A stretch of DNA of 58,324 bases, filler included, from Streblomastix strix (taxonomy: Eukaryota): NCBI GenBank assembly GCA_008636045.1. It is 2 parts of 2 records of this genome, joined end to end, with 100 filler letters (N's around TTAATTAATTAA, not from the genome) between each part and the next. Parts side by side here need not be neighbours in the genome. Positions count along the whole stretch, not along the records: positions 29,254 to 58,324 come from SNRW01000108.1; 1 more part is not named here. One strand, given 5' to 3'. Made by a program: the position numbers and the translations under genes. Each line of letters begins with the position of its first letter. Within the stretch, counting starts at the first letter, position 1. Below, one piece after another: positions 1 through 58,324 of this stretch. The notes under the pieces are model-generated. The model did no database searches, was not told the DNA's origin, and worked only from the letters and a program-made list of their open reading frames with translations.

Positions 1-3000
1 TAATATTTCCCCATCCCATTTATTTATAATATTTTAATATATGATCGATTCCTTATTTATCAATTAATTGAGTATGAATAGGAAATGAAATTGGGAATCC
101 TATTCCTGATTTGGGTAATTAGAATGTTTGGGAAATGAATTATGAGTGAGAATTGTATTAGGATTATTCATCTTGATTTTATTCATATTTTATTTGTTGT
201 TGTTATTATTATTATTCCTGATTTGGGGTTCCTTATAACAAATTATTATATTATTACCATAATTGTTTATTCGTTTCATTTACTTCATTTTGCAATCTTA
301 GATTATCCCTCTGAATGTCTTATATAAACTTACTAATGTCTTATTCTCTTTCAATATTTACTTCATTTAATCTTCTTTTCATCCAATCCTTCACTTTCTC
401 AAATTGATCAATATTGCTGCTTTATGGGAATATATCTTTAGGATTAAACTTCTTATATGTTGGTGGGAGTGTGGATCGCATTGCAAATTTGAAGATATCA
501 GGAAATCTTGTTCTATATTCAAGGAGTATATTAATAGCTATATCTGAGAACTCCCAAGGAAATAGATATTATGTTTATGAAGAAGAAGATTGCTAATATG
601 GAGAAGATTATTAGAATGGAGAGAATTGAGGAGATTATGTCTAATATTGTGAATATGAAGATTATTATTGTTTCTGATAGGGTGAATTAACTTTGTTTTA
701 CTAATTATATTACTAACCTCTCTTTTCATTCTCATTGTCCATTCCACCCCATTAATACTGCTTAAATAAAGCTCCAATATTAAATCTAACATAAAAAGGA
801 GAATGTCTCATCCATGAATTGTTGTTTATTATACAAAATGGGAGACCAATATCATATGAAACTGGGAATGATGATTATGATTAAGATTAGGATGATGATG
901 ATTAGGATTAATTCTGATTACCAGAGTCTGGTTTAACAGTAATAACAAATGGTTGAACCAAATTCCTTACAGATGATTGAGGAGTATTAATCAATTATGC
1001 AACTTCATCTAATGTGTACCAATTTAATTAATATTATGGTTAATATAATTGTTATAGTAATGGGAATAGAGTTACTGAAGGAGGAAGTACATCATATACA
1101 AGTGAAGGTAATTATGATTATTTATTCTTTTTTATTATTGGATCTTATTCATCACCTTATTAATCTTCAAATTCATTCAGTTATTCAGATTCTTCCTTCA
1201 ATGCAGCAATCTCTACAAGTTAAGGTGTTATTCCACAGAATTGAATATTCTATTATGAAGATGATAATAATTATGATTGAATTTCTACGGCTTCAAACTC
1301 AAATTCAACCAAAACTTTTGGTATTTTATCTTCGCTTTTATTATTATTATTATTTTCCTCAATATTTGTATTTTCATTTTCGATACTAATTTATTCTTAT
1401 GGATTTTAATTTACAATAATTCCACCCAATCCAATTAATGCCAATGGATGTGGAATTGATGAAGGTTTATGAGTCAAATGTATCTCTTCATATTTATGAA
1501 GATTGGAAGTTCGAGGATTTGGAGTTTTAGTTTATTTGATTTCATTTTCTTTTTCTTTTTCTTCTTTATTAACTCCATCAATTATTTATTCTTTTTCATT
1601 TTCAACTTCTTTTCTTTCAATACTTTCAACAGAAATAACTTCTATATCTCCTCCTCCAAGAATAACCTTCTTTCCAACATCATAAATATGAGTAAGAGCA
1701 ATTATACCTTCTTCATTATCTTCTTATTCTTCATTTTCTATTTCATTTTCTTATTCTTCATTTTCTATATCTTATACTTCATTAATTTAATCTTCATGTT
1801 ATTCAATCAATTATTCTTTAACATTAATGTCATCTTCTTCTGTACTGTTCTCTCTATTTTCTTTCTTTTGTTTATTTTCCTTCTCTTTCGTCACTTTCTT
1901 CTTCTTTTCTTTCTCTTTCATTTCCTCTTCTCCAGATGTCCTTATTTAATTGGCAATAATAAATCTCTTATCTGGAGCAATAGGCATTCCAGTTAATAAC
2001 TATAATGGAAGTGTAACTGCTCCTGCATAATCATATTCAGCAGTAACTGATAAATATGGAATTTGAATGTGTTATTATATTTATGTTGTTAATTTAGCTT
2101 TATTTTCATCATCATTTATTTTCTCTTTATCATCAATTGAATAAATTCCAACTTTATTCAAATCTTATCCATTTAATTTCTTCAATTCTTATTCTCTTCT
2201 TATTTCTCTTTATCTTCTTTTCCATTTCTTTGAATGTTTCTAATTAATTTACTCTTCATTAGTTTCTTCTTTATTATTATTATTATTATTATCTTATTCC
2301 CCTTATTTATCCTTCCCTTATTCATTATTTGCATCTTCATTTATATTAATCTCTTTCATAATCTGAACTCTAGTCTTGTGTTTGAGAGAAAGTGCTAACA
2401 AAGGATGTATTGAGCATAGAATAGATATTCCATCTCCACTCACTTCCTCATCATCAAGTAATCTTCTGTTGTTCATTGGTTAATTCAGTCCAGTCTTATC
2501 ATTTGCATCGGATCCTTTCCTTTCTTTAGAACCAATTTCTATTCCTCTTCTCGATAATAATTATTTCCTCACAAATTCACAGCTGCTTTTAAAGTCAACA
2601 GAATTAGATGTTACTCCAGGAACCGATCTCTTTAAAATTCTCTCTAATTACTTGGGTGATAATTATGCAATCATTTCTCCAGCTGTTTATTATATTGGAC
2701 GAATTGTCTTATTTGGTGAAAGAGTATTGGTGTTATCTTTCACATTTGAATCATCTTTATTATCATCTGGAGTGTCAATTAATTATTGAATAAGCTTCAT
2801 TGCAAAAGCAGTTTCTGATTTCTTAAGATCTTCTCTAATTCTTTCTCTCTCCAATATTTTCTCATTTCCTTTCTTCTTATTCAATAAATCGACAATTTCA
2901 CCTTCTTCCTCATCTTCCTCTTCCATCAGAGCTCCTTCATTCAATTCCCAACAAATCCCTCCTTATGCTTCAACTCTGAATATTCTTCCTGGTCTTAGAT

Positions 3001-6000
3001 GAGGCCAATTATAATAACATGCACATCCTATAAGGAATCTGAGCGCATATGATAGAGTAGGTTCTACAGATGCTATCTATTATTATGATGAGGATGGAGA
3101 ATGCAATATAATAGATTGTGCTTATGATGATGATGATGATTATACTGAATTATGTTAAATAGGAAGTATAACATCTACAGAAGTAGAAGGATTTGCATTT
3201 CTTTATTTTGTTAAATGAGGAGATGTTTAAATTAAAGATGGAATAAGTGAATCATCAACGCTTGATTTCATTAATGTTGTAGAATGACCCAAATTTGTAG
3301 AAGAAGGATATTGTTTCATTATTGGATTTGTTTTGGATGATTAATACTAATTAGAAGGCGATGAATTAGCAGCTTTTTAGAGAAGAGCTAAAACAGGAGA
3401 TTATAATTAAGTAGGTTAAATGGGACCAGCTGTTTATTTAGGTTTACTTACAGGTGGAATTAGTACAGATTAGTTATTTATTATTATAGTTGGTGGTTGA
3501 ATCTTCTTCTTACCTCCACGAAGGCTGTTACTCAGTGTTAATATTAATGATGCTTATCTACTTGCATATCCAAATACAGTCATTTTGACATCACGAACTT
3601 TTGCAGTTAACTTCACAAATCCCGTTAATGGATCAATTCCTTCTTCTTCTTATTCTTTTCTTTATTACAATTTAGTTGGTGATAATAATGAAGAAGATGA
3701 ATCACGTTATATTATTTGATTACTATTCTTTTCTTTTCCTTATTTATCTTAATTATCTTTAACATTCAATTGTTCATAGTAATTCCACTTATTAAACTAC
3801 TCTTCTTTATTCCCATCGTTTTATTTATTTTGATTTTTATATGGAACAATTGCTGGTGGTTGAGCACAATTAATGAAGAATCCCAATGTGCATGGATGTA
3901 ATGTATACAACAATGAAGGGAATCGAGATCTTAAGTAGAAACCAGGCAATAAAATGGGACGAATCAAAGATCCCGTTTCTCTCCAAAGCTAATTTTGCTA
4001 TGAATTTTCTTATGATTTATTATTAGGAAAATCTAAAGGAGCAAATTGTTGTATTAATCTTTTAATAGAGGAAATCTAATCAATTGTTTCTAATGAAGAT
4101 TCAGATATTTTCTTTTTAATTGGGAATATCTGAGTAATTCTTGGTGATTAAAGTGATAATAGTTATTAGAGATCATAGAATGCATCATTTCCTTATCTTT
4201 AATCTTCCTCATCTTCATCCTATTCATAATTTCTCTCATATCTTATTCTATCTTAATCATCAAAGTATTACTTATTCTACTTCTTCAATTCATCTCCAAT
4301 GTATCTGAATCCTAATGGGAAAGGTTAATGTGAATTAGGTTGTGCTCTCTGCATCACAATCTTACAATTAGATAGAGATAAGAATGCAGGATGTACAATT
4401 GGAGGAAGAAGAACTGTTCCTGGGAAGACATTATTGGGACGAATGAACTATTTTTGGAGTCTGAATATCTCAGATGAATCAAATTCAGTTCTATTCTCAG
4501 CTATGGATAAAATAAGCTTTAATTCTGCCTCTCTTTCTTTCTCTAATAATTTCCTTATTAATTTGAAGTCCTTATGAGCAGGAGCTCTGAATAGTATGTT
4601 TGTATTGTGTGAATTCCTTCTTGTTTCTTCTTATGATAAAAGAGGATATATTTTCTGAGCTTATTTCTCTACTTCTTTCACATTCATGAATGGAAGCACA
4701 CAAACTCCTTCCCAGGGCATATGAGCGAATTCCATATCAACTTCAAACTATAATGGATAGTATTGTATAAGAGGAGAATCATTCTCATGCATCAGTGGTC
4801 TGAATGGAGCAGGGAGTAGTGTATCTGATCCAGGAGGGAGCACAGAAAGAAGTTATTCAAATGGACGAACTGGTTTCTCTTCTTTGAATGAGAAAGTGAC
4901 TGCAATTGGAGATTGTGTGTGACCTTAATAGAAATATTCCTATCTTGTATATTTAGAGTATATTGGAGTAACTGATGTAGATTGTTGGGAATCAATTAAT
5001 GCAAAGCTTTGATTTAGAGAGGATTATTAATTCAGAGAAGAATCCAATATTGTTTGAGCAGCAATTGCTGTTAATTCGCATAAATCGCACAACAAAGGAG
5101 CATAGATATATGGATAATACCAACTCCATGATACACATCCTCTATAATAATATAGAAATACCCATTAAACAGCTTCCATATATGAACGAATAACTGATCT
5201 ATGTTCAGAATAAATTGGATCTTTTAATGCCATCTCTCTAAATGGAGCTTCAGATATGGATGTGAAATATTGAGATTGCTTTGTTTATTTTTAGGATTGA
5301 ATCTTTGTATTTTATTATTGTTTTATTTATTCTTCTTCTTATTTCTCTTTGATAACACCATGATATTCTTCATTTTATTCTTCATCATGATTAGTTTCTT
5401 CTCCAAAAAGCATTCCAGGTGATTCAAATAGATATTCTCTATTTCCATTTGTATTCTAATTATCATCTGTTATATCATCACTACATTCATGAAACTCACT
5501 TTATCCATAATCTCTTCCATTACTATTCTCAAATCTATCAAATTGGTCATTGTAACTATATCCTTTTATTCCTTATATGCTGTATAATGCATCTCTCATA
5601 TGATGTGGGTCCCATTTATTCATAATTAGTGGATCTGAAATGAATAAAGGAGGTGGATCATAGCTGAATTTATTCTTATAATACTCTTACCTCCATTATG
5701 GGATTCTGTAATGCGCTTCATCTTATGCATCTCTGAATGGTGCATATGGATTATATGAAGTGCTTGAAATGGATCTGAGATTGGACTGTTATGCTTTAAT
5801 ATCAGAATCAGAATCAATTCAATTTGAATTTGAATTGGATTGTTATTTTTCATCTGTTCTATTATCAATTAATTATTCTAATCCCTCAGTTATTCTAATA
5901 ATAGATTTCATTCTATCTTTATCTGATAATCCTTTACTCTTCTCTCCCTAAACAATGAACTCCCCATTCTTAAACTACACTTTTGGTTTCTGGATGCTAC

Positions 6001-7266
6001 TGTTACTTGAATAACTACTACTGAATGTATCTGAATCTTTCCCCCTTTCCATGAAGAATGATCTCTCTTATGAAGCAAGACCTTAACAAAGCCTCTCAAA
6101 TGAATGCCAATTCACAATACCATTCCTTACTAGATATCCATCTGGTATTGACTGTTATTATTCCTTATTATCTCCATCAATTGTCCCAGGCCTTGATGTT
6201 CCAAATGTTGGCAATAATTTGATATATAATGAAAATATATCAGAAAGTGAGCCTTATGAAATATCTAATCCTGGCATCTTAGGAATGAAGTCATTACCAA
6301 CAAAGAAGCATATCAATACGAAATCATCAATTACACGTTCAAAGTCATACGCAAAAGGAATACGGAATTTAATAGACTCAAATTCTTTCATTAGATATTC
6401 TCGTAGTATCGAAAGGTGCAAGAATTAGAAATTGATCTTTTCTTCTCCAACTCGTGATTGGTTAGTTTTCTTATTACTGTTCAATCTAAGCTCTTCACGT
6501 AAGATAACAAAATTTGGTTCATGAGTAGCGAGTGAGAGCATAATTAAGTCTGCATCTTGTCCATATATACAATGTGATGTAGCTGGGCTATAATCAGGAA
6601 GTTCTCTTTATGCTCTTATATAGGACATGATCTTATGCTCACCTTCTCCAGGTACATCACATCCAGATACAATGACTGACACTTTTTCCCATAATTTATC
6701 TGTGCTTAGTTTCATCCTTACAAAATATTTCAGCCAAACTGAGAGTCTAAACATGAATTCTGTTCCTGGGGTGATACAGTTACTATCAAAGACTTCAGTT
6801 GGAACATCTTCACCTTTCTCTTTTGCATCTCGTATTGCATCTTCACGATCACGCATTGAACGAAATCGACGTGAGCGCTGTTGGTTCAATTTCGCTCGTG
6901 GTGCTACTCCATCAATGGCAATGAAGAGCAGTTTTCGTGGCTTAACAATTTGGAAGAGCCTGTCAATGTACTGGAAAATTCCTGCTATCATCTCTTCATC
7001 AGTAATCTGCTTCTGTATACCAGCATTCCCATGTGTTGCGTTGTGGATAATACCATTCGAATCGAGATATAAATTATCTGAAGAAATATCGTCATATGTT
7101 TTTTTTCGATGATATAAATATTGCACACCAATATCCGGACTTGTAAAAGCATCGCAAGGCGACAAAATCAGTGGATAACGTTCGCTGATCCACCTTGAGG
7201 TAGAAGCAGAAAATCAAGATTTAAGAAATGTAAAAGAGCATACTTAAATAGTTTAGGAACACCCAT
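1..7266 (-). CDS. XRN1: 5'-3' exoribonuclease XRN1; 3' end runs off the window; >2,380 aa in window with TAR=Gln
   Basis: ATG at 7266; exons 7266-7244, 7193-7129, 7077-<1 (introns 7194-7243, 7078-7128). Translation: [124 protein letters not shown]. Downstream XRN1-type segments (YNWPHL, RRGIEIG, DIGL) and the length favour XRN1 over XRN2. No in-frame TGA seen in the long exon. Confidence 0.95.
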
Positions 7267-7354
7267 ATTTGTATGGATACACGGGCACGCGATGTACTTT
7301 AGAACAAAAAATAAAGAAATAAAGAAAATAATAAATGTTGAAGTCTATAAAATC

Positions 7355-7737
7355 TTGAGTTTTTCAAAGCAAATTCATCCACTTTATATTTGGGTACAAA
7401 TGAAGTGTGATCAAGATAAAATGTTTTGAAAATAATGTATAATAAATAAAATGATTATTTTCAGGTAAAATGTTTATCCTGAACTTATTGTACAGCAAAG
7501 TTGAACTTAGGGCCTTTCCTTTTTGTTCACTTTATAATATTTCGTTTTTGCGTACTTTTTATATGTTAAAATTAAAATTTAAAATTAAATATTATATAGA
7601 GCAAATATTTCTTTATCAAAAACAATTTTATCCTCCTATTCATTCATCTATTTTAAAGAGCTTCTATTATTTTTATTCTTCTTTTTTGTTTTAATTTCAT
7701 TTTCATTTTAATTATTAACTTAATCTATATTAATTAA
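7355..7737. repeat. Direct repeat copy A1 (paired with 9228-9596), upstream of XRN1
   Basis: TTGAGTTTTTCAAAG...TTTGGGTACAAATGAAGTG...TTTTCAGGTAAAAT...CCTTTCCTTTTTGTTCACTTTATAATATTTCGTTTTTGCGTAC is shared; ~250 bp near-identical core, then a divergent middle, then a shared ~48 bp tail. Boundaries approximate. Confidence 0.9.
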
Positions 7738-7829
7738 TAAATTTATAATAGTTTATTGACAATCAAAGTTCCAACACTTCTCCTGTTGAAGTTTCTTGCA
7801 AATGAAACTGTGCAATTAATATTGTATCT

Positions 7830-9151
7830 TCACTTTTCTTCTTTTTCTTCTTCATTGGTCTGTTTTATTATCTTTTGATTTATCGATTAAAACTCTTTGA
7901 GAATATTTTCCTAAATAAAATGTCAAAAGGTAGTAGTTGAAATCTAAAATATGTAGGCAAATTAGAAATCATACAATAGTAATTAAACTCCAATCTCCTT
8001 TGCAAAGCTTTTCAGTTGTCATTGTAAGATCCAAGTATGAGAATCTATATGTATATTTAGTAAGATTAATAAAATATGATTTGAAATTGTTAATTATATA
8101 ATTTACATTAAAAAATAGTATATATACCCACGTGTTTGAGTAACCAATTAATCAATTTCTGATTATTACACATTCAATCTAATTTTATGCAAGAATTTAT
8201 TTAAAAATAATTATCTTTCTTCCTCAAAAGGATTAGCAAAATATGCATGGTAATTGAATTTCTTCATGAATTATACTGGAATCTCATCAAAATTAGTTGT
8301 TGTAGCAATAATTGTTGTACCTGAACATTCATATGATTATTAATAAAATGAAATTGAATAAAAATCTCTTATATAATAATCAAAACCTTCTTTGTTCATT
8401 TGATTTTAAAGTTCAGTGATAATCAACTTCGCTCGATCAGAAGTTCCATCTCCAATCATTTTATCAATTCCTTCAATAAATACCAATCCTGGATATATCT
8501 TTTCTGCTTATTCAAAAGCGATTGAAATGTTCCTAGTTCATAAGAAAATGAATTATTATTTTTATTTAATATCATTTATGTCCATACTATACATAGTCTT
8601 AATCTTCTCATCCAGCAATTATTTCAAGAGATATTGGAATAAACAGATGATTTCCCTGAGTTGAAAGAGCTTTTGCCATCATCTTCTTTCCATTTCCTGG
8701 GTCCTTTTCAATAAGCAAAAAAATAATAAAAAGAAGAATAAATGTAATATACAACTATCGAATAAAAAGCAAATATACCCCAGAAAAGTGCATGTGGCTA
8801 TGCCTTCCTTGTTTTATATCATCTTTTAGTTTGTCTTTTATGGAATTCCGTCCTATAATGTTGTCCCAGAGAACAAACTCGTATTATAATCCAAGAGATA
8901 CCAGCTTTTCGCTATTCTCTTGCAACTTCCTTGTTAATTCTTTAATTCTTTAATTATTTTCACTAATATCCTCCTAAACGTAATATAAAATGTTGAATTT
9001 AGTTAAAATATTTATCACATACTTCAATCTTCTGTTAAGAGTCATGCTACATTTCCTTTAAATTTTATTTTAAACTGTCTTATACAAGTTCTTCAAATAT
9101 CTGATCAAAGCTTGACTTGCGGAATCTATTGTCAGCACGTAAAGCACACAT
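7830..9151 (-). CDS. Divergent AAA+ ATPase (katanin/spastin/ATAD1-like fold) with N-terminal coiled coil; one in-frame TGA at 8608-8610
   Basis: ATG at 9151, about 7 exons. Motifs: WDNIIG; Walker A-like SG/DPGNGKKMMAKALST; Walker B-like LVFIEGID; sensor-1-like IIATTTN; TRGFSYLDL; ITIENILKEF; stop TGA 7830-7832. Confidence 0.75.
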
Positions 9152-9227
9152 AGCTGAAGTGAAAACGTAATATAAAATAAAAATTACGAGAAAAAATAAA
9201 TTAGTATGTGATTGAGCCAGCAAAGTT

Positions 9228-9596
9228 TTGAGTTTTTCAAAGAAAATTCACCCGCTTTATATTTGGGTACAAATGAAGTGCGATCAAGATAAAATGAATT
9301 GGAAATAATGTATAATAAATAAAATGATTATTTTCAGGTAAAATATTGTTCCTGAATTTATTGCACAGCAAATTTGAACTTAAGACCTTTCCTTTTTGTT
9401 CACTTTATAATATTTCGTTTTTGCGTACTTTTTATATGTTAAAATTAAAATTAAAATTAAAATTAAAATTAAATATTATATAGAACAATATTTGACATGT
9501 ACAAAAAAAGCTAATTTGATTTTTCTATTTAACAGATTTTTTAGTTTAATTTCAATTTCATTTTAATTATTAACATAATCTATATTAATTAATTAA
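9228..9596. repeat. Direct repeat copy A2 (paired with 7355-7737), upstream of the AAA+ gene
   Basis: Same sequence as 7355-7737 with substitutions and an extra AAAATT unit. Confidence 0.9.
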
Positions 9597-52656: not shown

Positions 52657-55600
52657 ATGACATTAAGATCTGGTATTAGTTTACTGCCTCCTGAAATATC
52701 CAACAAGATTTCTAGTGGACAAGTGATTCAAGATGTCAATTCAGCTGTGAAAGAATTGGTTGAAAATTCTTTAGATTCGTAACCACATAGAATCGCAGTA
52801 GATCTGAGAGAATATGGCCTAGAATAGATACAAGTCATTGATGATGGAGAAGGAATTGAAGAAGAAGATTTTAACAAATTGGGTGTCAAGCATTGCACAA
52901 GCAAACTTTCTACATTTTCTGGTCTTAATGATATCACTACACATGGATTTTGAGGGGAAGCTCTTCATTCTTTGTGTAATCTTGCAAATGTTACAATATT
53001 TACAAGGGGAAAAAGATCAAACATTGGATCAGTTATCGTTTTCAACAATAATGGAACAATTGTAAGTAAGAAAAGTGCGCAATGAACTGTATAATAATTA
53101 TGCTTTGTTATAAAATATTATATTTTATGTATCAATCATATTACCTTTTTAATTATTACAGGTTGGAACAACAGTCACCATTTCGAATCTTTTTTCAAAC
53201 TTACCTGTTCGTAGAAAATCAATAACAGAAACAATTGAAAGAGATTTTATTAAGTTAATAACATTAATGCAGGGATATGCTATAGGAAACTTGGGTGTTC
53301 GTATTTCATTCACAAATCAACTGCAAAAAAAGTATAATATATAAATTTTTTTATTTAATCAAATTAAAAGAGTAATATTCATAATTCTTTTTTTCTTCAT
53401 AAATTATTAGTCCTAATAAATAAACTATTTTATCCACAAGTGGATAATTATCTATGCTTGATACAGTAAGTGAAGTTTTTGATTCCCGTATTTTGAAGGA
53501 ATTAACACCTTTTAACTTAAGTGGAGATGGATTTGAGTTTGATTTAGTATTAATTAGTATATATTAATTCTTACTATTAATATATTTAATGTATAAAATT
53601 CAGAATTACTGGATTTATTACATTACCGTCACCACTTAGTTAGAACAAAGAACTCATTTCTCCTTAACGAACTCATTTTCAAAATTCTCAAACGAATATT
53701 CATCATCACCAATAGTAATTCTTCTTTGTAAATAAGCGACCAGTAGATCTTCCTCATATTGCTCGTGTTATTAATGAGGCTTTTGCCGAACATCAACCAA
53801 AGTTTATTAATTTACTTTTATCTTTAAATTTATTTATTTGTTTATCATTAATTATTTTTTATTTATATTGAAGAATACTTTCAAATGTTCAATAAAAACC
53901 TTTTGCAGTTGTATTAATATCAATAAATGGAAATATTCTTGATGTGAATGTATCTCCTGACAAAAGAAAGGTAATGATTGTTGATGAAGCATCCATTGTG
54001 TAATAATTGAAAGAGAAACTTGAAACTGAAATATTTATAATAAAAGACAGAATACTTTAACCTATTCTTCTTCCTCCAATAATCAGTCCTTAGATTTCAT
54101 CTACTAATAATATGGATCAATTTATTTAGTAATCTTTATTTTCTTCTCCTAATTTTTATTAATAAAGATCATATGATTAATTAAATGAAAATACAAGTTT
54201 GAATAATACTACTATTTAACCTAATGGAAATTATTCAGATAATAATGATGAATAAGTATAAAATGAACAATTAGAAAAAATTGCAAATTAACAAATATAA
54301 TAAAATATTAAATAATAGCTTCCAAATGAATATATACATACAGATGAAGATATAAATAATGAATTATTAATCAATTAATTGATAAATCCTAATGAAAGAA
54401 TTAAAAATTAGATATAATAATAATTTTTTCACACGGGATAAAATTATTAACATTAATAATTAAAATTAAACGAACCTTATTTTTACAATATTTCTTCTGA
54501 AATTGACAGTTCATGCGTTTAATATGAATCATTGGAGCATGCTCTAAATTAAATTGCGTTTGGAACATTAAAATAAAATTTTAATAAAGAAAAAAATCAC
54601 TCATTCGCTCAAAAAATCATTGATTAAGAAGAAAGTTAAGTGATAACTTTACCAGAACCACCAATGTTACCATCTTCAATTTCATTTCAGTAATCTTCTC
54701 TCATTAATTCTCTCCCAACTGGATTCCATTTCAAATAGTCAATGTTCAAAAAACTTCGAATAATTGGACAGTTTAATCTCGCTTTTATCATTGCAATTTA
54801 TGATGATGATGGAGATGATGATGAAGAAGATAATATTGAATATATGAATGAAATAGGAAATTTAAATGCTAATTCATAAGATGAACGCCATCCATTTGTA
54901 TTTATTGTCGATCAACATGCTGCTGATGAAAAATATAATTATGAGACACTCAAAAAATCTGTTATTGTTAGTAAGTAAAAACTTATAATTCCATAAAATT
55001 TATCAAAAATATTTACTATAGAATAACTCGGAATAATCAAAGATAATCTTAATTGCTTTAGATGGAATGGATTTGAAATCGTCGAAAGAAATAATTCAAT
55101 GGTAATTGACCAAAAGAATGTTTAAATAAATTAATTTGGCAAAACATTTAATAATGAAAGTGATAATGTGAACTTAATGATTAAAAAGAAAAGAAAAAGA
55201 GACGAGGAACTTGAAGTATTAACTTAATAAGTTATAACCGACAATGATGAAATTAAAAATTTATAATATAACTAATTATCTTTAGAATTCGGGAATGAAT
55301 AAGGTTAAAAGCGAAGAAAAACTGATTATATTGAATAAAATGAAGAATATGAATATAACGAGGAATTATCAATTGAAGAAATAATGTAACATGCAATAGA
55401 AAACGAAATGAAGAATGAAGAAATAGAAAAATAAAAAATTAAATAAGATTTTTCAACAGATTAGGATATTAAGGATTAATAAATTAATGATTAAGTTAGT
55501 TCATCTTATATTATTTTGCCTCAACTGACTGAATCAACATTCAATATAAATTCAGAAGCTAATTCTGATTAATAATCTTAAAGTAATTACTTTTTAGAAC

Positions 55601-56212
55601 ATTCCTCATTAAGTTAATCTCTTTCATAATATATTGATACATCATGTATTGAAGCATAACAATTGCCTTAAACAGAAGATATTCCCTTTTTAGAATCTAA
55701 CGAAGACTAAGAAAACTCGCTTTATTTGCTTTCAATTCCTCTCTTTTCGAAAGGGAATTTAACACTTGGATTGGAAGGTTAATGATTAATTAAAGGAAGT
55801 ATTAGTATTTAAATGTTTATATCATTATTTTTATATTCAATTACTAATTATGCATTACAGATATTTATGAACTAATAGATTAACTTAGAGAGTAACCAGC
55901 TTTAATGCTTCGACCAAAAAGGGTGCGAATGATGTTTGCATCAAAAGCCTGTAGATCATCAGTTATGGTTGGAAAAGCGTTGACATTAAGCGAAATGAAA
56001 TTAGTTTACTATTTTTTATTGCTGTATATTTTTCATTTCATACTCATATTAATTATTTGATTCAGATACTAAACCACATGTCGGAGTTGGATAGTTGCTG
56101 GTCATGTCCACATGGGCGACCCACTACCCACCTTCTTTTTGATTATTAGGGAGGAATAGCAAAACATCCAATAGCATATTTTCCATATCATTATTCTCAT
56201 CTCAATCCATGA
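52657..56212 (+). CDS. PMS2: MutL-family mismatch-repair endonuclease (human PMS2/yeast PMS1 type); two in-frame TGA codons (52951, 53083)
   Basis: [115 protein letters not shown]; six phase-consistent introns; stop 56210-56212. Confidence 0.95.
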
Positions 56213-56360
56213 TAAAAAGTATCGTATATTTATTTGACACTAAAATAAAATATTATCAAATCACCCTCAACAATTGATTAATGACTGCTTATTACAGAAT
56301 GAATGATTTCAGTAACAATCATCTCCATTATTTTTCATATTTTTTTAGTTTTATTCATTA

Positions 56361-58324
56361 TCACTCTTTCTTAACATCTGTATCATCACTTTGTCCAATC
56401 TATTGTCTGGGAGAAATCCTTGGTAGGTTCTTCTTTGTTCTATCTGCTTCATACACTTAATGATCATAAAGATCTTAATTTGGTGAGGATGTGCGAGAAT
56501 GTGCACTTTTCCTTCCCACAGGCAAAGTACGGACATATGCATCATTATTATCTTTAATTCTTCTACCATATTAACTTCCTCTATCTCTTTCTCTATCTCT
56601 ATTATCATTCTAGATAAGAGTTCTCTTCATTATTCCCTTAACTCTCTTTCCAATAGTCTCAGATACAATCCATACTTCATCATCACTTAATTCATCAATA
56701 AGAAGAATTATTGATTTCAATACGTTTGTTCTACCTCTCTCTTATTTAATCTAATTTCTGGGCTTATTGAATGATTTTCTATCCATTATTCTTTTATTTA
56801 TGTAATTATCTCTTTCTTCTTAATCATCTGAATAGTCATATGAATCATCATCTATTGATCTACTATCTGAACTAGTTTATTCTCTATGTTTTCTACTTAT
56901 CCTTTTTTGTCTATCTTAATATTCCCTATCTTTGTTTCTTCTTCTATCCTGTTTGTATTCATCTTCACCATGATTGATCTAATTGGAAGGTTAATCATTT
57001 TCTTCATCATTAACAATTAATCTTGTTCTTCTTTATTCCATATCATTCTTTTGCATTCTATTTTTATCATTATCATTGTTATTCGACTATTAGGGCAATT
57101 TTTAACTCCTTAACGTTTATGCTTGATATTATTGTGAAACTTGGTCCTTTATACTTTCTGCAGTTGTATTTCCTAACCTATCACTTGATCCCCACGTTTT
57201 TCTCTATCTCATTTAACCAATTCCTAATTAATCATTGGATTCTTATCCTTTTTCAATCTTTCTTTATTTGTTATCTTCATCGGTTAAATCATCAAATGAT
57301 ACTTTTTCCTGTTTACTTAACCTTCTAATATCTTCTTAATTCAACTGGTGTGTTTATGGAATAGAATCTCTAGGTATAACAGAAGTAAAAGCCATTGAAC
57401 CAGGTTTTCTCATAGAATTCAAATTTCCTTCATTCTCCTTTTCTGATGAATAAGTATTTCTCACATTTTGAGATCCATATGATTGTCCACTGAATGTCTG
57501 CGCAAGTTAATTGGGTTTTGGTTGAATTGCTGTCCGTGAAATTAACGCTGTTGAATGAAGTGGTATACTAGATTTGGCCTGCAACTAACTTTGCGATTAT
57601 GATTATAATTTATTCAATGCATTTTCTATTTTATCTAAACTCATTTCACTAATTTCAATATTGCTGTTCAAAATGTTATCTATTTCATCTTCTTCATCAT
57701 TAGCTACAAAATTATTGGAAACTATTTTGTTACGATCTTCTGGAGTAATTTATCTTTTATCAAGAGTTTTTAATGTCCTGATTTTATTAACTATTGTTTC
57801 AAAGAATCCTTTTTACAAACATATTGGATTTTCCTCCAGCCACAGCACAGTTAAACATGGAAGATTCTGAACAGGAAAAAACCAATTAATGAATAAATTA
57901 AAACAATAAATTAACATAAAAAGAAAATAATCATTACTGCTATTTCATCAATCTCATTTAAGTCATTTATCTCATTTTTTCTCAAATACAGCTCTTTTAA
58001 TTTCAAACATCCTCTGAATGATCTGAGTGATGATATCTTATTTACACTGTGGTTCAGATAAAACAGATTAATCTTATAAAAATTCTGTATTAAATAATAC
58101 ACCTCAATGAAACGACTTCTACGTTCGGCATTCTTTCCAAAACAGAAATATCTACAAGCTAATTAAAAAAATAAAATTAATAAATCAGTCTTTATATTTT
58201 ACTTTAATTCATTGTAAAGGGGGATAACGAAGTCCGTCCGAGGTCCCTACAGACAGGTGTGAATTGATCCATAATATATTTAATATATGTATATATGTGA
58301 TTGAATTAGTTGATGAAATTAAAA
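56361..58324 (-). CDS. CFAP410: CFAP410 (C21orf2)-like LRR protein; first exon probably beyond the window end
   Basis: Spliced translation LVDISVLERMPNVEVVSLSVNKISSLRSFRGCLKLKELYLRKNEI...LPCLTVLWLEENPIC...LKTLD, plus C-terminal helix NVLKSIILLIDELSDDEV typical of CFAP410; stop TGA 56361-56363. Confidence 0.85.

Follow-up and report, generated by a model that had tools for sequence, protein, structure and literature searches.

In-frame TGA codons at conserved arginine positions in Streblomastix strix: a candidate nuclear code with UGA as arginine or stop

Which amino acid, if any, does TGA specify when it falls inside an apparently intact nuclear gene? The question is raised by a PMS2 (MutL-family) gene of Streblomastix strix, an oxymonad protist of the termite gut, in which two in-frame TGAs occupy positions where homologues carry arginine (Arg). 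The gene lies in a stretch of 58,324 nucleotides (nt), hereafter the window, that joins two parts of the genome assembly GCA_008636045.1, the second of which is SNRW01000108.1 (positions 29,254 to 58,324). We present here an analysis of this window, in which TGA may be a rare, position-dependent Arg/stop codon on top of the reading of TAA and TAG (together TAR) as glutamine (Gln); we regard the chances of the Arg/stop reading as evenly balanced. At the level of sequence the pattern is real, whereas its translation as Arg is a proposal.

Gene models were built from GT-AG splice sites and homology, with TAR read as Gln, and all codon counts refer to the window. Two sequencing runs were used for comparison. 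Run X1 consists of DNA reads that were separately assembled and may come from the same sample as the source assembly. Run X2 was taken as RNA because it skips the two GT-AG introns at the 5′ end of the XRN1 gene; its donor organism is a relative about 2% divergent. Differences of either run from the window were counted among those listed, which form the denominators below. The public annotation appears to derive from the same assembly as the window and to give no independent support for its bases.

Two internal TGAs in PMS2

Pfam and solved structures identify the gene product as a PMS2-type MutL protein, with its best match in Blattamonas PMS1. Pfam domains HATPase_c_3, DNA_mis_repair and MutL_C are present, giving the GHKL ATPase, S5-like and MutL_C composition of a PMS2/PMS1 MutL-alpha endonuclease, and the protein carries motifs that we take to be those named DQHA-x2-E-x4-E, ACR and CPHGRP. 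The only internal stops in the model are the TGAs at codons 99 and 143 (Table 1). Both lie where the original prediction had placed them, and its picture of an otherwise intact frame with the endonuclease motifs kept stands, over 1,039 codons rather than the approximately 1,050 first given. In the alignment, the column of codon 99 is Arg in 259 of 260 homologues and tryptophan (Trp) in none; in human PMS2 structures, 1h7s and 1ea6 among them, the residue aligned with this TGA is the Arg of GFRGEAL. The column of codon 143 is Arg in 209 of 248 homologues, with Trp outside the five commonest residues. Both sites are likewise Arg in the two oxymonad orthologues, from Blattamonas and Monocercomonoides. 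The public annotation ends at the first TGA and records a protein of 98 amino acids (aa).

Table 1. Coordinates of the genes, TGA codons and predicted structures discussed in the text
Feature	Position	Strand	Details
PMS2 (MutL-family) gene	52657..56212	+	7 exons; GT-AG and homology model
PMS2 exons	52657-53088, 53162-53331, 53411-53536, 53604-53801, 53874-55777, 55861-56003, 56066-56212	+	1,039 codons
PMS2 internal TGA, codon 99	52951..52953	+	in GF-R-GEAL ATPase motif; CAT GGA TTT TGA GGG GAA GCT CTT
PMS2 internal TGA, codon 143	53083..53085	+	GCG CAA TGA ACT, intron, then GTT GGA ACA ACA
PMS2 intron 1	53089..53161	+	GTATAA...TTACAG, 73 nt, 15% GC; predicted from sequence and composition
PMS2 possible alternative donor GTAAGT	53062..53067	+	in frame; use predicted only, from sequence
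PMS2 terminal TGA	56210..56212	+	context CCA TGA TAA
Predicted hairpin, first PMS2 TGA in stem	52938..52978	+	z -3.8 versus synonymous re-coding, 1/500
Predicted long exon 1-exon 2 hairpin with second PMS2 TGA, flanking intron 1	53054..53210	+	z -3.55, 2/500
XRN1 5′-3′ exoribonuclease	2..7294	-	3′ end beyond window; Pfam XRN_N, XRN_M
XRN1 internal TGA	5819..5821	-	low-complexity linker, XRN_N to helical domain; frame unchanged on both sides
Phospholipase C (EF-hand, X, Y, C2)	48802..52005	+	Pfam; 5′ end further upstream; terminal TGA at 52003
Phospholipase C internal TGA	50737..50739	+	past X domain, before matched part of Y and C2; frame open on both sides

Splicing does not readily account for these codons. 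An intron over the first TGA was rejected, as no candidate span is T-rich: T makes up 46-62% of the six PMS2 introns versus 30-37% of the candidate spans, with one true XRN1 intron at 33%. Use of the candidate donor upstream of the second TGA would drop nine codons including that TGA, and the residues concerned align gap-free to orthologues. PMS2 is spliced in the close relative, at low depth: a 543-nt X2 contig skips intron 4 (53802-53873), the other PMS2 introns being predicted. An X1 contig of depth 17 covers 52270-58222, and among the differences listed for it there is none at either PMS2 TGA.

Judged from its sequence, PMS2 is not visibly decaying. N-terminal identity is 44% between S. 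strix and M. exilis, compared with 43% between Blattamonas and M. exilis. Of 48 N-terminal columns conserved among 139 diverse homologues, whose 5th percentile is 89%, PMS2 retains 44 (45 if TGA is Arg), which is normal for that set; relative to a narrower set of 120 homologues it keeps 122 of 157 columns, below that set's 5th percentile of 91%. A TGA-free copy of PMS2, suggested earlier as a check, was not found among the top matches of protein searches, two of which were limited in length (253-2000 and 348-1110 aa) and missed even the 98-aa model, so that the absence of a second copy is weakly indicated. A metagenome scan with PMS2 exon 1 gave 60 loci, the best of them at 38-60% identity and none from S. 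strix.

Internal and terminal TGAs across the window

Internal TGAs were found in two further genes, XRN1 and phospholipase C (PLC). XRN1 is 99% identical to S. strix KAA6403374.1. Its TGA sits within an AAT-TCA repeat, in a column where only 13 homologues align and their residues are mixed, so no residue can be named. The public XRN1 model bridges this TGA with a 195-nt intron (5980-5786), which was rejected because an X2 RNA contig (contig 12; 4,357 nt, depth 33.8, main piece 2877-7077 with 84 substitutions and two 6-nt indels) runs through it without a skip. The same public model treats a number of in-frame stretches that look coding as introns, and at least this one (- strand) is continuous in RNA. 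An intron over the PLC TGA was rejected by composition, none of the 31 possible GT-AG spans being T-rich, and an X1 contig (48055-51742) crosses the site with no differences. Exact look-ups with four guessed PLC fragments gave no match. If the two TGAs acted as stops, XRN1 would lose its helical domain and PLC most of its Y and C2 domains. In a scan of 2,593 TGA triplets for coding-like flanks, the PLC site ranked first and the XRN1 site ninth; the PMS2 TGAs fell outside the top 30, and the scan may have missed further internal TGAs in short exons. The 3′ end of PLC and its flank have recently been duplicated upstream of the gene (47491-48084 and 51710-52297, + strand; 99% and 93% identical). 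Over 5500-7500, which includes the 5′ part of XRN1, X1 contains two haplotypes at about half depth, one of which shares X2 variants; PMS2 is represented by a single contig.

The long frames hold 13,421 codons, with TAA:CAA at 1183:297 and TAG:CAG at 207:80, together with 45 CGA, 353 AGA and 71 TGG. TAR occurs 1,390 times in open frames. TAA marks Gln at four of five conserved columns, and TAG falls on two non-Gln columns at the strict cut-off and on one Gln column at a looser one. CAA/TAA and CAG/TAG vary between individuals. The reading of TAR as Gln in the original prediction is right and had already been published for S. strix as NCBI table 6 (Keeling and Leander 2003, via citing papers; PMC13002328, PMC1501061). 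Internal TGA is far rarer, with four in approximately 14,000 codons (approximately 0.03%), in three genes.

TGA also terminates PMS2, PLC, an M20 peptidase and importin alpha. It is thus found both at gene ends and inside coding sequence, as in an ambiguous code; table 6 accounts for TAR but has no TGA inside coding sequence, whereas the window has TGA inside genes that are probably functional. The Arg/stop reading is drawn from the four TGAs inside three otherwise unbroken frames, from the conserved Arg columns that two of these TGAs occupy, and from the terminal TGAs of PMS2 and PLC. This reading, advanced in the original prediction, remains the best one and has gained two extra genes and RNA continuity over the XRN1 site, short of proof. 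The context CCA TGA TAA is common to the terminal TGA of PMS2 and the internal TGA of PLC, so whatever separates stop from sense cannot lie in the neighbouring bases. At the four internal sites the distance to the gene end is 1,266 nt or more, and the stops of convergent genes are separated by 148 and 187 nt. This spacing fits, without showing, the termination-position rule proposed for Condylostoma (PMC4967479).

Several observations weigh against an Arg/stop code. TGA and CGA stand at 4 versus about 50, unlike the dominance of TAA and TAG over CAA and CAG. The idea that all three stops are read as their C-starting counterparts draws support from TGA at Arg columns, but in usage TGA is no equal partner of TAA and TAG. 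The Arg assignment comes from two columns of one gene; the XRN1 and PLC sites say nothing about the residue. The X2 contig gives continuity over the XRN1 TGA and not the RNA base there, and X2 RNA leaves the PMS2 and PLC TGAs uncovered. X1 holds a second haplotype across the XRN1 TGA with seven differences, one of them listed, and this TGA may be private, heterozygous or allele-specific. Between X2 and the window, 7 of 12 listed differences downstream of the XRN1 TGA are non-synonymous (5 synonymous), as are 4 of 8 listed in PMS2. The genomic evidence comes from a single sample. Stops in pseudogenes can look residue-biased, as Shulgina and Eddy warn (PMC8629427), and UGA readthrough in yeast is reported to yield 86% Trp and 7% Arg. 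Both PMS2 TGAs also lie in unusual predicted hairpins (see below), which a plain tRNA model would give no reason to expect.

Much of this suits ordinary nonsense, under which PMS2 would have become a pseudogene recently and the TGAs of XRN1 and PLC would be null or heterozygous alleles of one individual. Internal TGA is rare, most differences of the second X1 haplotype at the XRN1 site are unlisted, and the PMS2 observation was picked out of a very large number of windows, so that its coincidence counts for less; that selection did not involve the sites in XRN1 and PLC. CGA to TGA, which needs a single transition, is a classic nonsense change. Against this, the X2-window substitution spectrum turns 1.8% of PMS2 substitutions into TGA, 15% of them on a conserved Arg column, and the chance that both PMS2 TGAs fall on conserved Arg columns is about 0.02. 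The chance would be 0.14-0.23 if CpG dinucleotides mutated 5-10 times faster, but no CpG excess was observed. CpG hypermutation was rejected, with CpG context in 3 of 32 listed polymorphic transitions and 4 of 46 in the duplicated segments, even though the window is short of CpG (observed/expected 0.44). A literature listing on methylation had nothing for oxymonads. A simple race model gives a chance of 0.2-0.45 for a second stop to arise before any frameshift. Three genes within 58 kb are affected and none of them, PMS2, XRN1 or PLC, has a frameshift, versus 21 indels per 102 substitutions in the duplicated segments. Downstream of the XRN1 TGA, X1 and the window differ at seven codons, six of them synonymously. 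PMS2 is spliced in the relative and diverges no more than its orthologues, and single X1 contigs span PMS2 and the PLC site, neither of them listing an alternative base. On these grounds we consider nonsense unlikely.

An amplification or assembly artefact, such as C-to-T damage in amplified DNA, is highly improbable. The sole DNA evidence may trace to the source sample, but the separate X1 assembly has the same bases, a C-to-T signature is seen in none of the three other conserved N-terminal columns that PMS2 misses, and damage would not single out in-frame Arg codons.

Editing, hairpins and decoding

If TGA is Arg at these sites, the change could in principle be made in the RNA or at the ribosome. 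U-to-C editing of all three stops, one of the routes proposed earlier, fails because the RNA keeps UAA and UAG. An X2 RNA contig spans 75 TAA/TAG codons, but run X2 shows only 11 editing-type changes over 8 kb, and the RNA has TAA and TAG at positions where the window has CAA and CAG. The proposed relaxed first-position decoding, with U generally read as C, was likewise abandoned, as T-starting codons keep their standard residues at tyrosine (Tyr), phenylalanine, serine (Ser), cysteine (Cys) and Trp columns. On conserved columns TAT is Tyr at 15 of 15, TCT is Ser at 5 of 6, TGG is Trp at 6 of 7 and TGT is Cys at 5 of 7; a lone TGT at a histidine column also misfits this decoding, which predicts Arg there. 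UGA as Trp was rejected, with no Trp at column 99 and TGG rather than TGA at all six conserved Trp columns. Selenocysteine recoding was rejected because the columns are Arg and no Rfam family matches within the window at gathering thresholds; the window also yields no tRNA gene.

A narrower possibility is site-specific editing guided by hairpins, either U-to-C (giving CGA, Arg) or adenosine to inosine (A-to-I; giving UGG, Trp). Taking the best of four window shapes, the two PMS2 TGAs lie in predicted stems with z scores of -4.0 and -3.5, and the XRN1 TGA is paired at -2.4, but PLC has no structure (+0.2). The first PMS2 hairpin still scores -4.0 with CGA substituted for TGA, and TGG in place of TGA would stabilise two of the folds. 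None of 145 background windows reaches -3; among 196 ordinary Arg codons, 3 reach -3.5 or below and 9 reach -3 or below. The test was post hoc. The second PMS2 hairpin may instead serve splicing: the cryptic donor GTAAGT at 53062 is predicted to pair with ACTTAC in exon 2, and a similar hairpin without a TGA (approximately 53500-53680, + strand; z about -3.5) flanks intron 3, so that the exon-exon pairing predicted at introns 1 and 3 is possibly a splice-guiding structure. Editing is further disfavoured in that TAR is unedited in RNA, X2 has no excess of A-to-G or T-to-C, and column 99 is free of Trp. A small literature listing contained no paper on nuclear U-to-C editing in protists. Overall, hairpin-guided editing seems quite unlikely. 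A search for a hairpin shared downstream of the TGAs gave none at three sites (z 0.27, -1.11 and 0.30). In XRN1, a further strong hairpin is predicted (z about -3.9), free of TGA, at codons approximately 60-75 after intron 2 (approximately 6850-6900, - strand).

Alternatively, UGA far from the mRNA end might simply be leaky, with Trp, Cys and Arg inserted in mixture; linkers would tolerate any of these, and a small Arg fraction would suffice for PMS2. Near-cognate tRNAs behave in this way by default, linkers house two of the four internal TGAs, and the XRN1 TGA, lying in its repeat, may never have been an Arg codon. The two PMS2 sites would, however, multiply a small Arg fraction to near nothing unless the donor at 53062 is used, and the six conserved Trp columns hold no TGA. 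We judge leaky readthrough to be rather improbable.

Under the preferred Arg/stop reading, TGA would have arisen from CGA by drift towards AT, in parallel with CAA and CAG becoming TAA and TAG. UGA would then be read by tRNA-Arg(UCG) through a G36-U1 wobble, or by a derived tRNA-Arg(UCA). G36-U1 pairing has been described in yeast for Gln at UAA (PMC5866558), where Arg is also reported as a minor UGA readthrough product (PMC5866558, PMC4967479). The Arg tRNA might compete with an eRF1 that terminates efficiently only near the mRNA 3′ end. Readthrough would probably be incomplete, in which case selection would keep internal TGA rare and probably absent from highly expressed genes, and small complementary DNA surveys would miss it. 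We regard as somewhat probable a nuclear code in which UAA and UAG are Gln and UGA is Arg while still ending genes. Such a code would have no nuclear precedent for UGA=Arg and would be seen here early, while usage is low. The most unusual version would have hairpins around each UGA specify Arg individually, perhaps by way of nuclear U-to-C editing.

Known codes and other features of the window

The published table 6 code concerns the same organism and agrees with the window in placing TAA/TAG at Gln columns and in ending genes with TGA; sense TGA is unmentioned in the parts of the sources available. PMC13002328 infers codes from tubulins only, and its available text has no occurrence of TGA or UGA; that of PMC10703272 does not mention the genetic code. 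All three stops are reported within coding sequence, with UGA as both sense and stop, in Condylostoma magnum and Parduczia (PMC4967479), karyorelicts and Plagiopyla (PMC11687900) and Amoebophrya sp. ex Karlodinium (PMC6394959); ambiguous stop codes are reviewed in PMC11687900 and PMC10089648. Under the Arg/stop reading, S. strix would resemble these in combining UAR as Gln with UGA as sense and stop, and would be closest to Amoebophrya, in which UGA appears to be the sole stop. It differs from Condylostoma, Parduczia and Amoebophrya in that their sense UGA is Trp, whereas in S. strix TGA falls on Arg columns and the Trp columns are all TGG. Internal UGA makes up approximately 0.03% of codons in S. 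strix versus 0.059% in a ciliate with low-level UGA=Trp (PMC4967479).

The statement in the original prediction that no nuclear UGA=Arg code is known holds for nuclear genomes but not beyond them. UGA=Arg has been proposed for the Craticula vanensis mitogenome and is suspected in Trentepohliales plastids and Oikopleuridae mitogenomes (PMC13672107). As in S. strix, these cases consist of UGA aligned to Arg, inferred computationally without protein confirmation. All of them are organellar, and in Craticula UGA is frequent (119 UGA versus 341 canonical Arg codons); in S. strix the codon is nuclear, rare and also a terminator. Near-cognate readthrough in yeast (PMC5866558) can insert Arg at UGA, but is reported to insert mainly Trp at low efficiency. 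In hymenopteran SPS1-UGA (bioRxiv 10.1101/014928), a structure overlaps the UGA and other insects have Arg at the site; that case differs in involving a single gene and a UGA derived from a selenocysteine codon. Neither a nuclear UGA=Arg code nor sense TGA in Streblomastix was found in the literature searched, which excluded most subscription journals. In the surveyed literature, nuclear sense UGA is Trp, Cys or selenocysteine; Arg, if true, would be a new assignment needing another tRNA route, and sense use at approximately 0.03% where TGA is the sole terminator would be a natural "ambiguous intermediate" of code change. Public models truncate PMS2 and give XRN1 an intron that the relative's RNA lacks, and inventories of S. 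strix genes, from which gene loss in a mitochondrion-less eukaryote is judged, may therefore include false losses.

The remainder of the window contains several other features. The end of the window (58218-58324) is a high-copy repeat with a summed X1 depth of approximately 450-680 and many variants, and with no matches in viral contigs. A multi-exon gene at 7294-9500 (- strand) has AAA-ATPase-like stretches recognised by eye and a duplicated flank at 86% identity, is partly spliced in X2, and may hold a frameshift or internal TGA of its own. The M20 peptidase gene at 42200-43783 (+ strand), a candidate for high expression or lateral origin, is intronless and GC-richer, encodes 527 aa, and, unlike its neighbours, specifies Arg with 14 CGT and 11 AGA codons.

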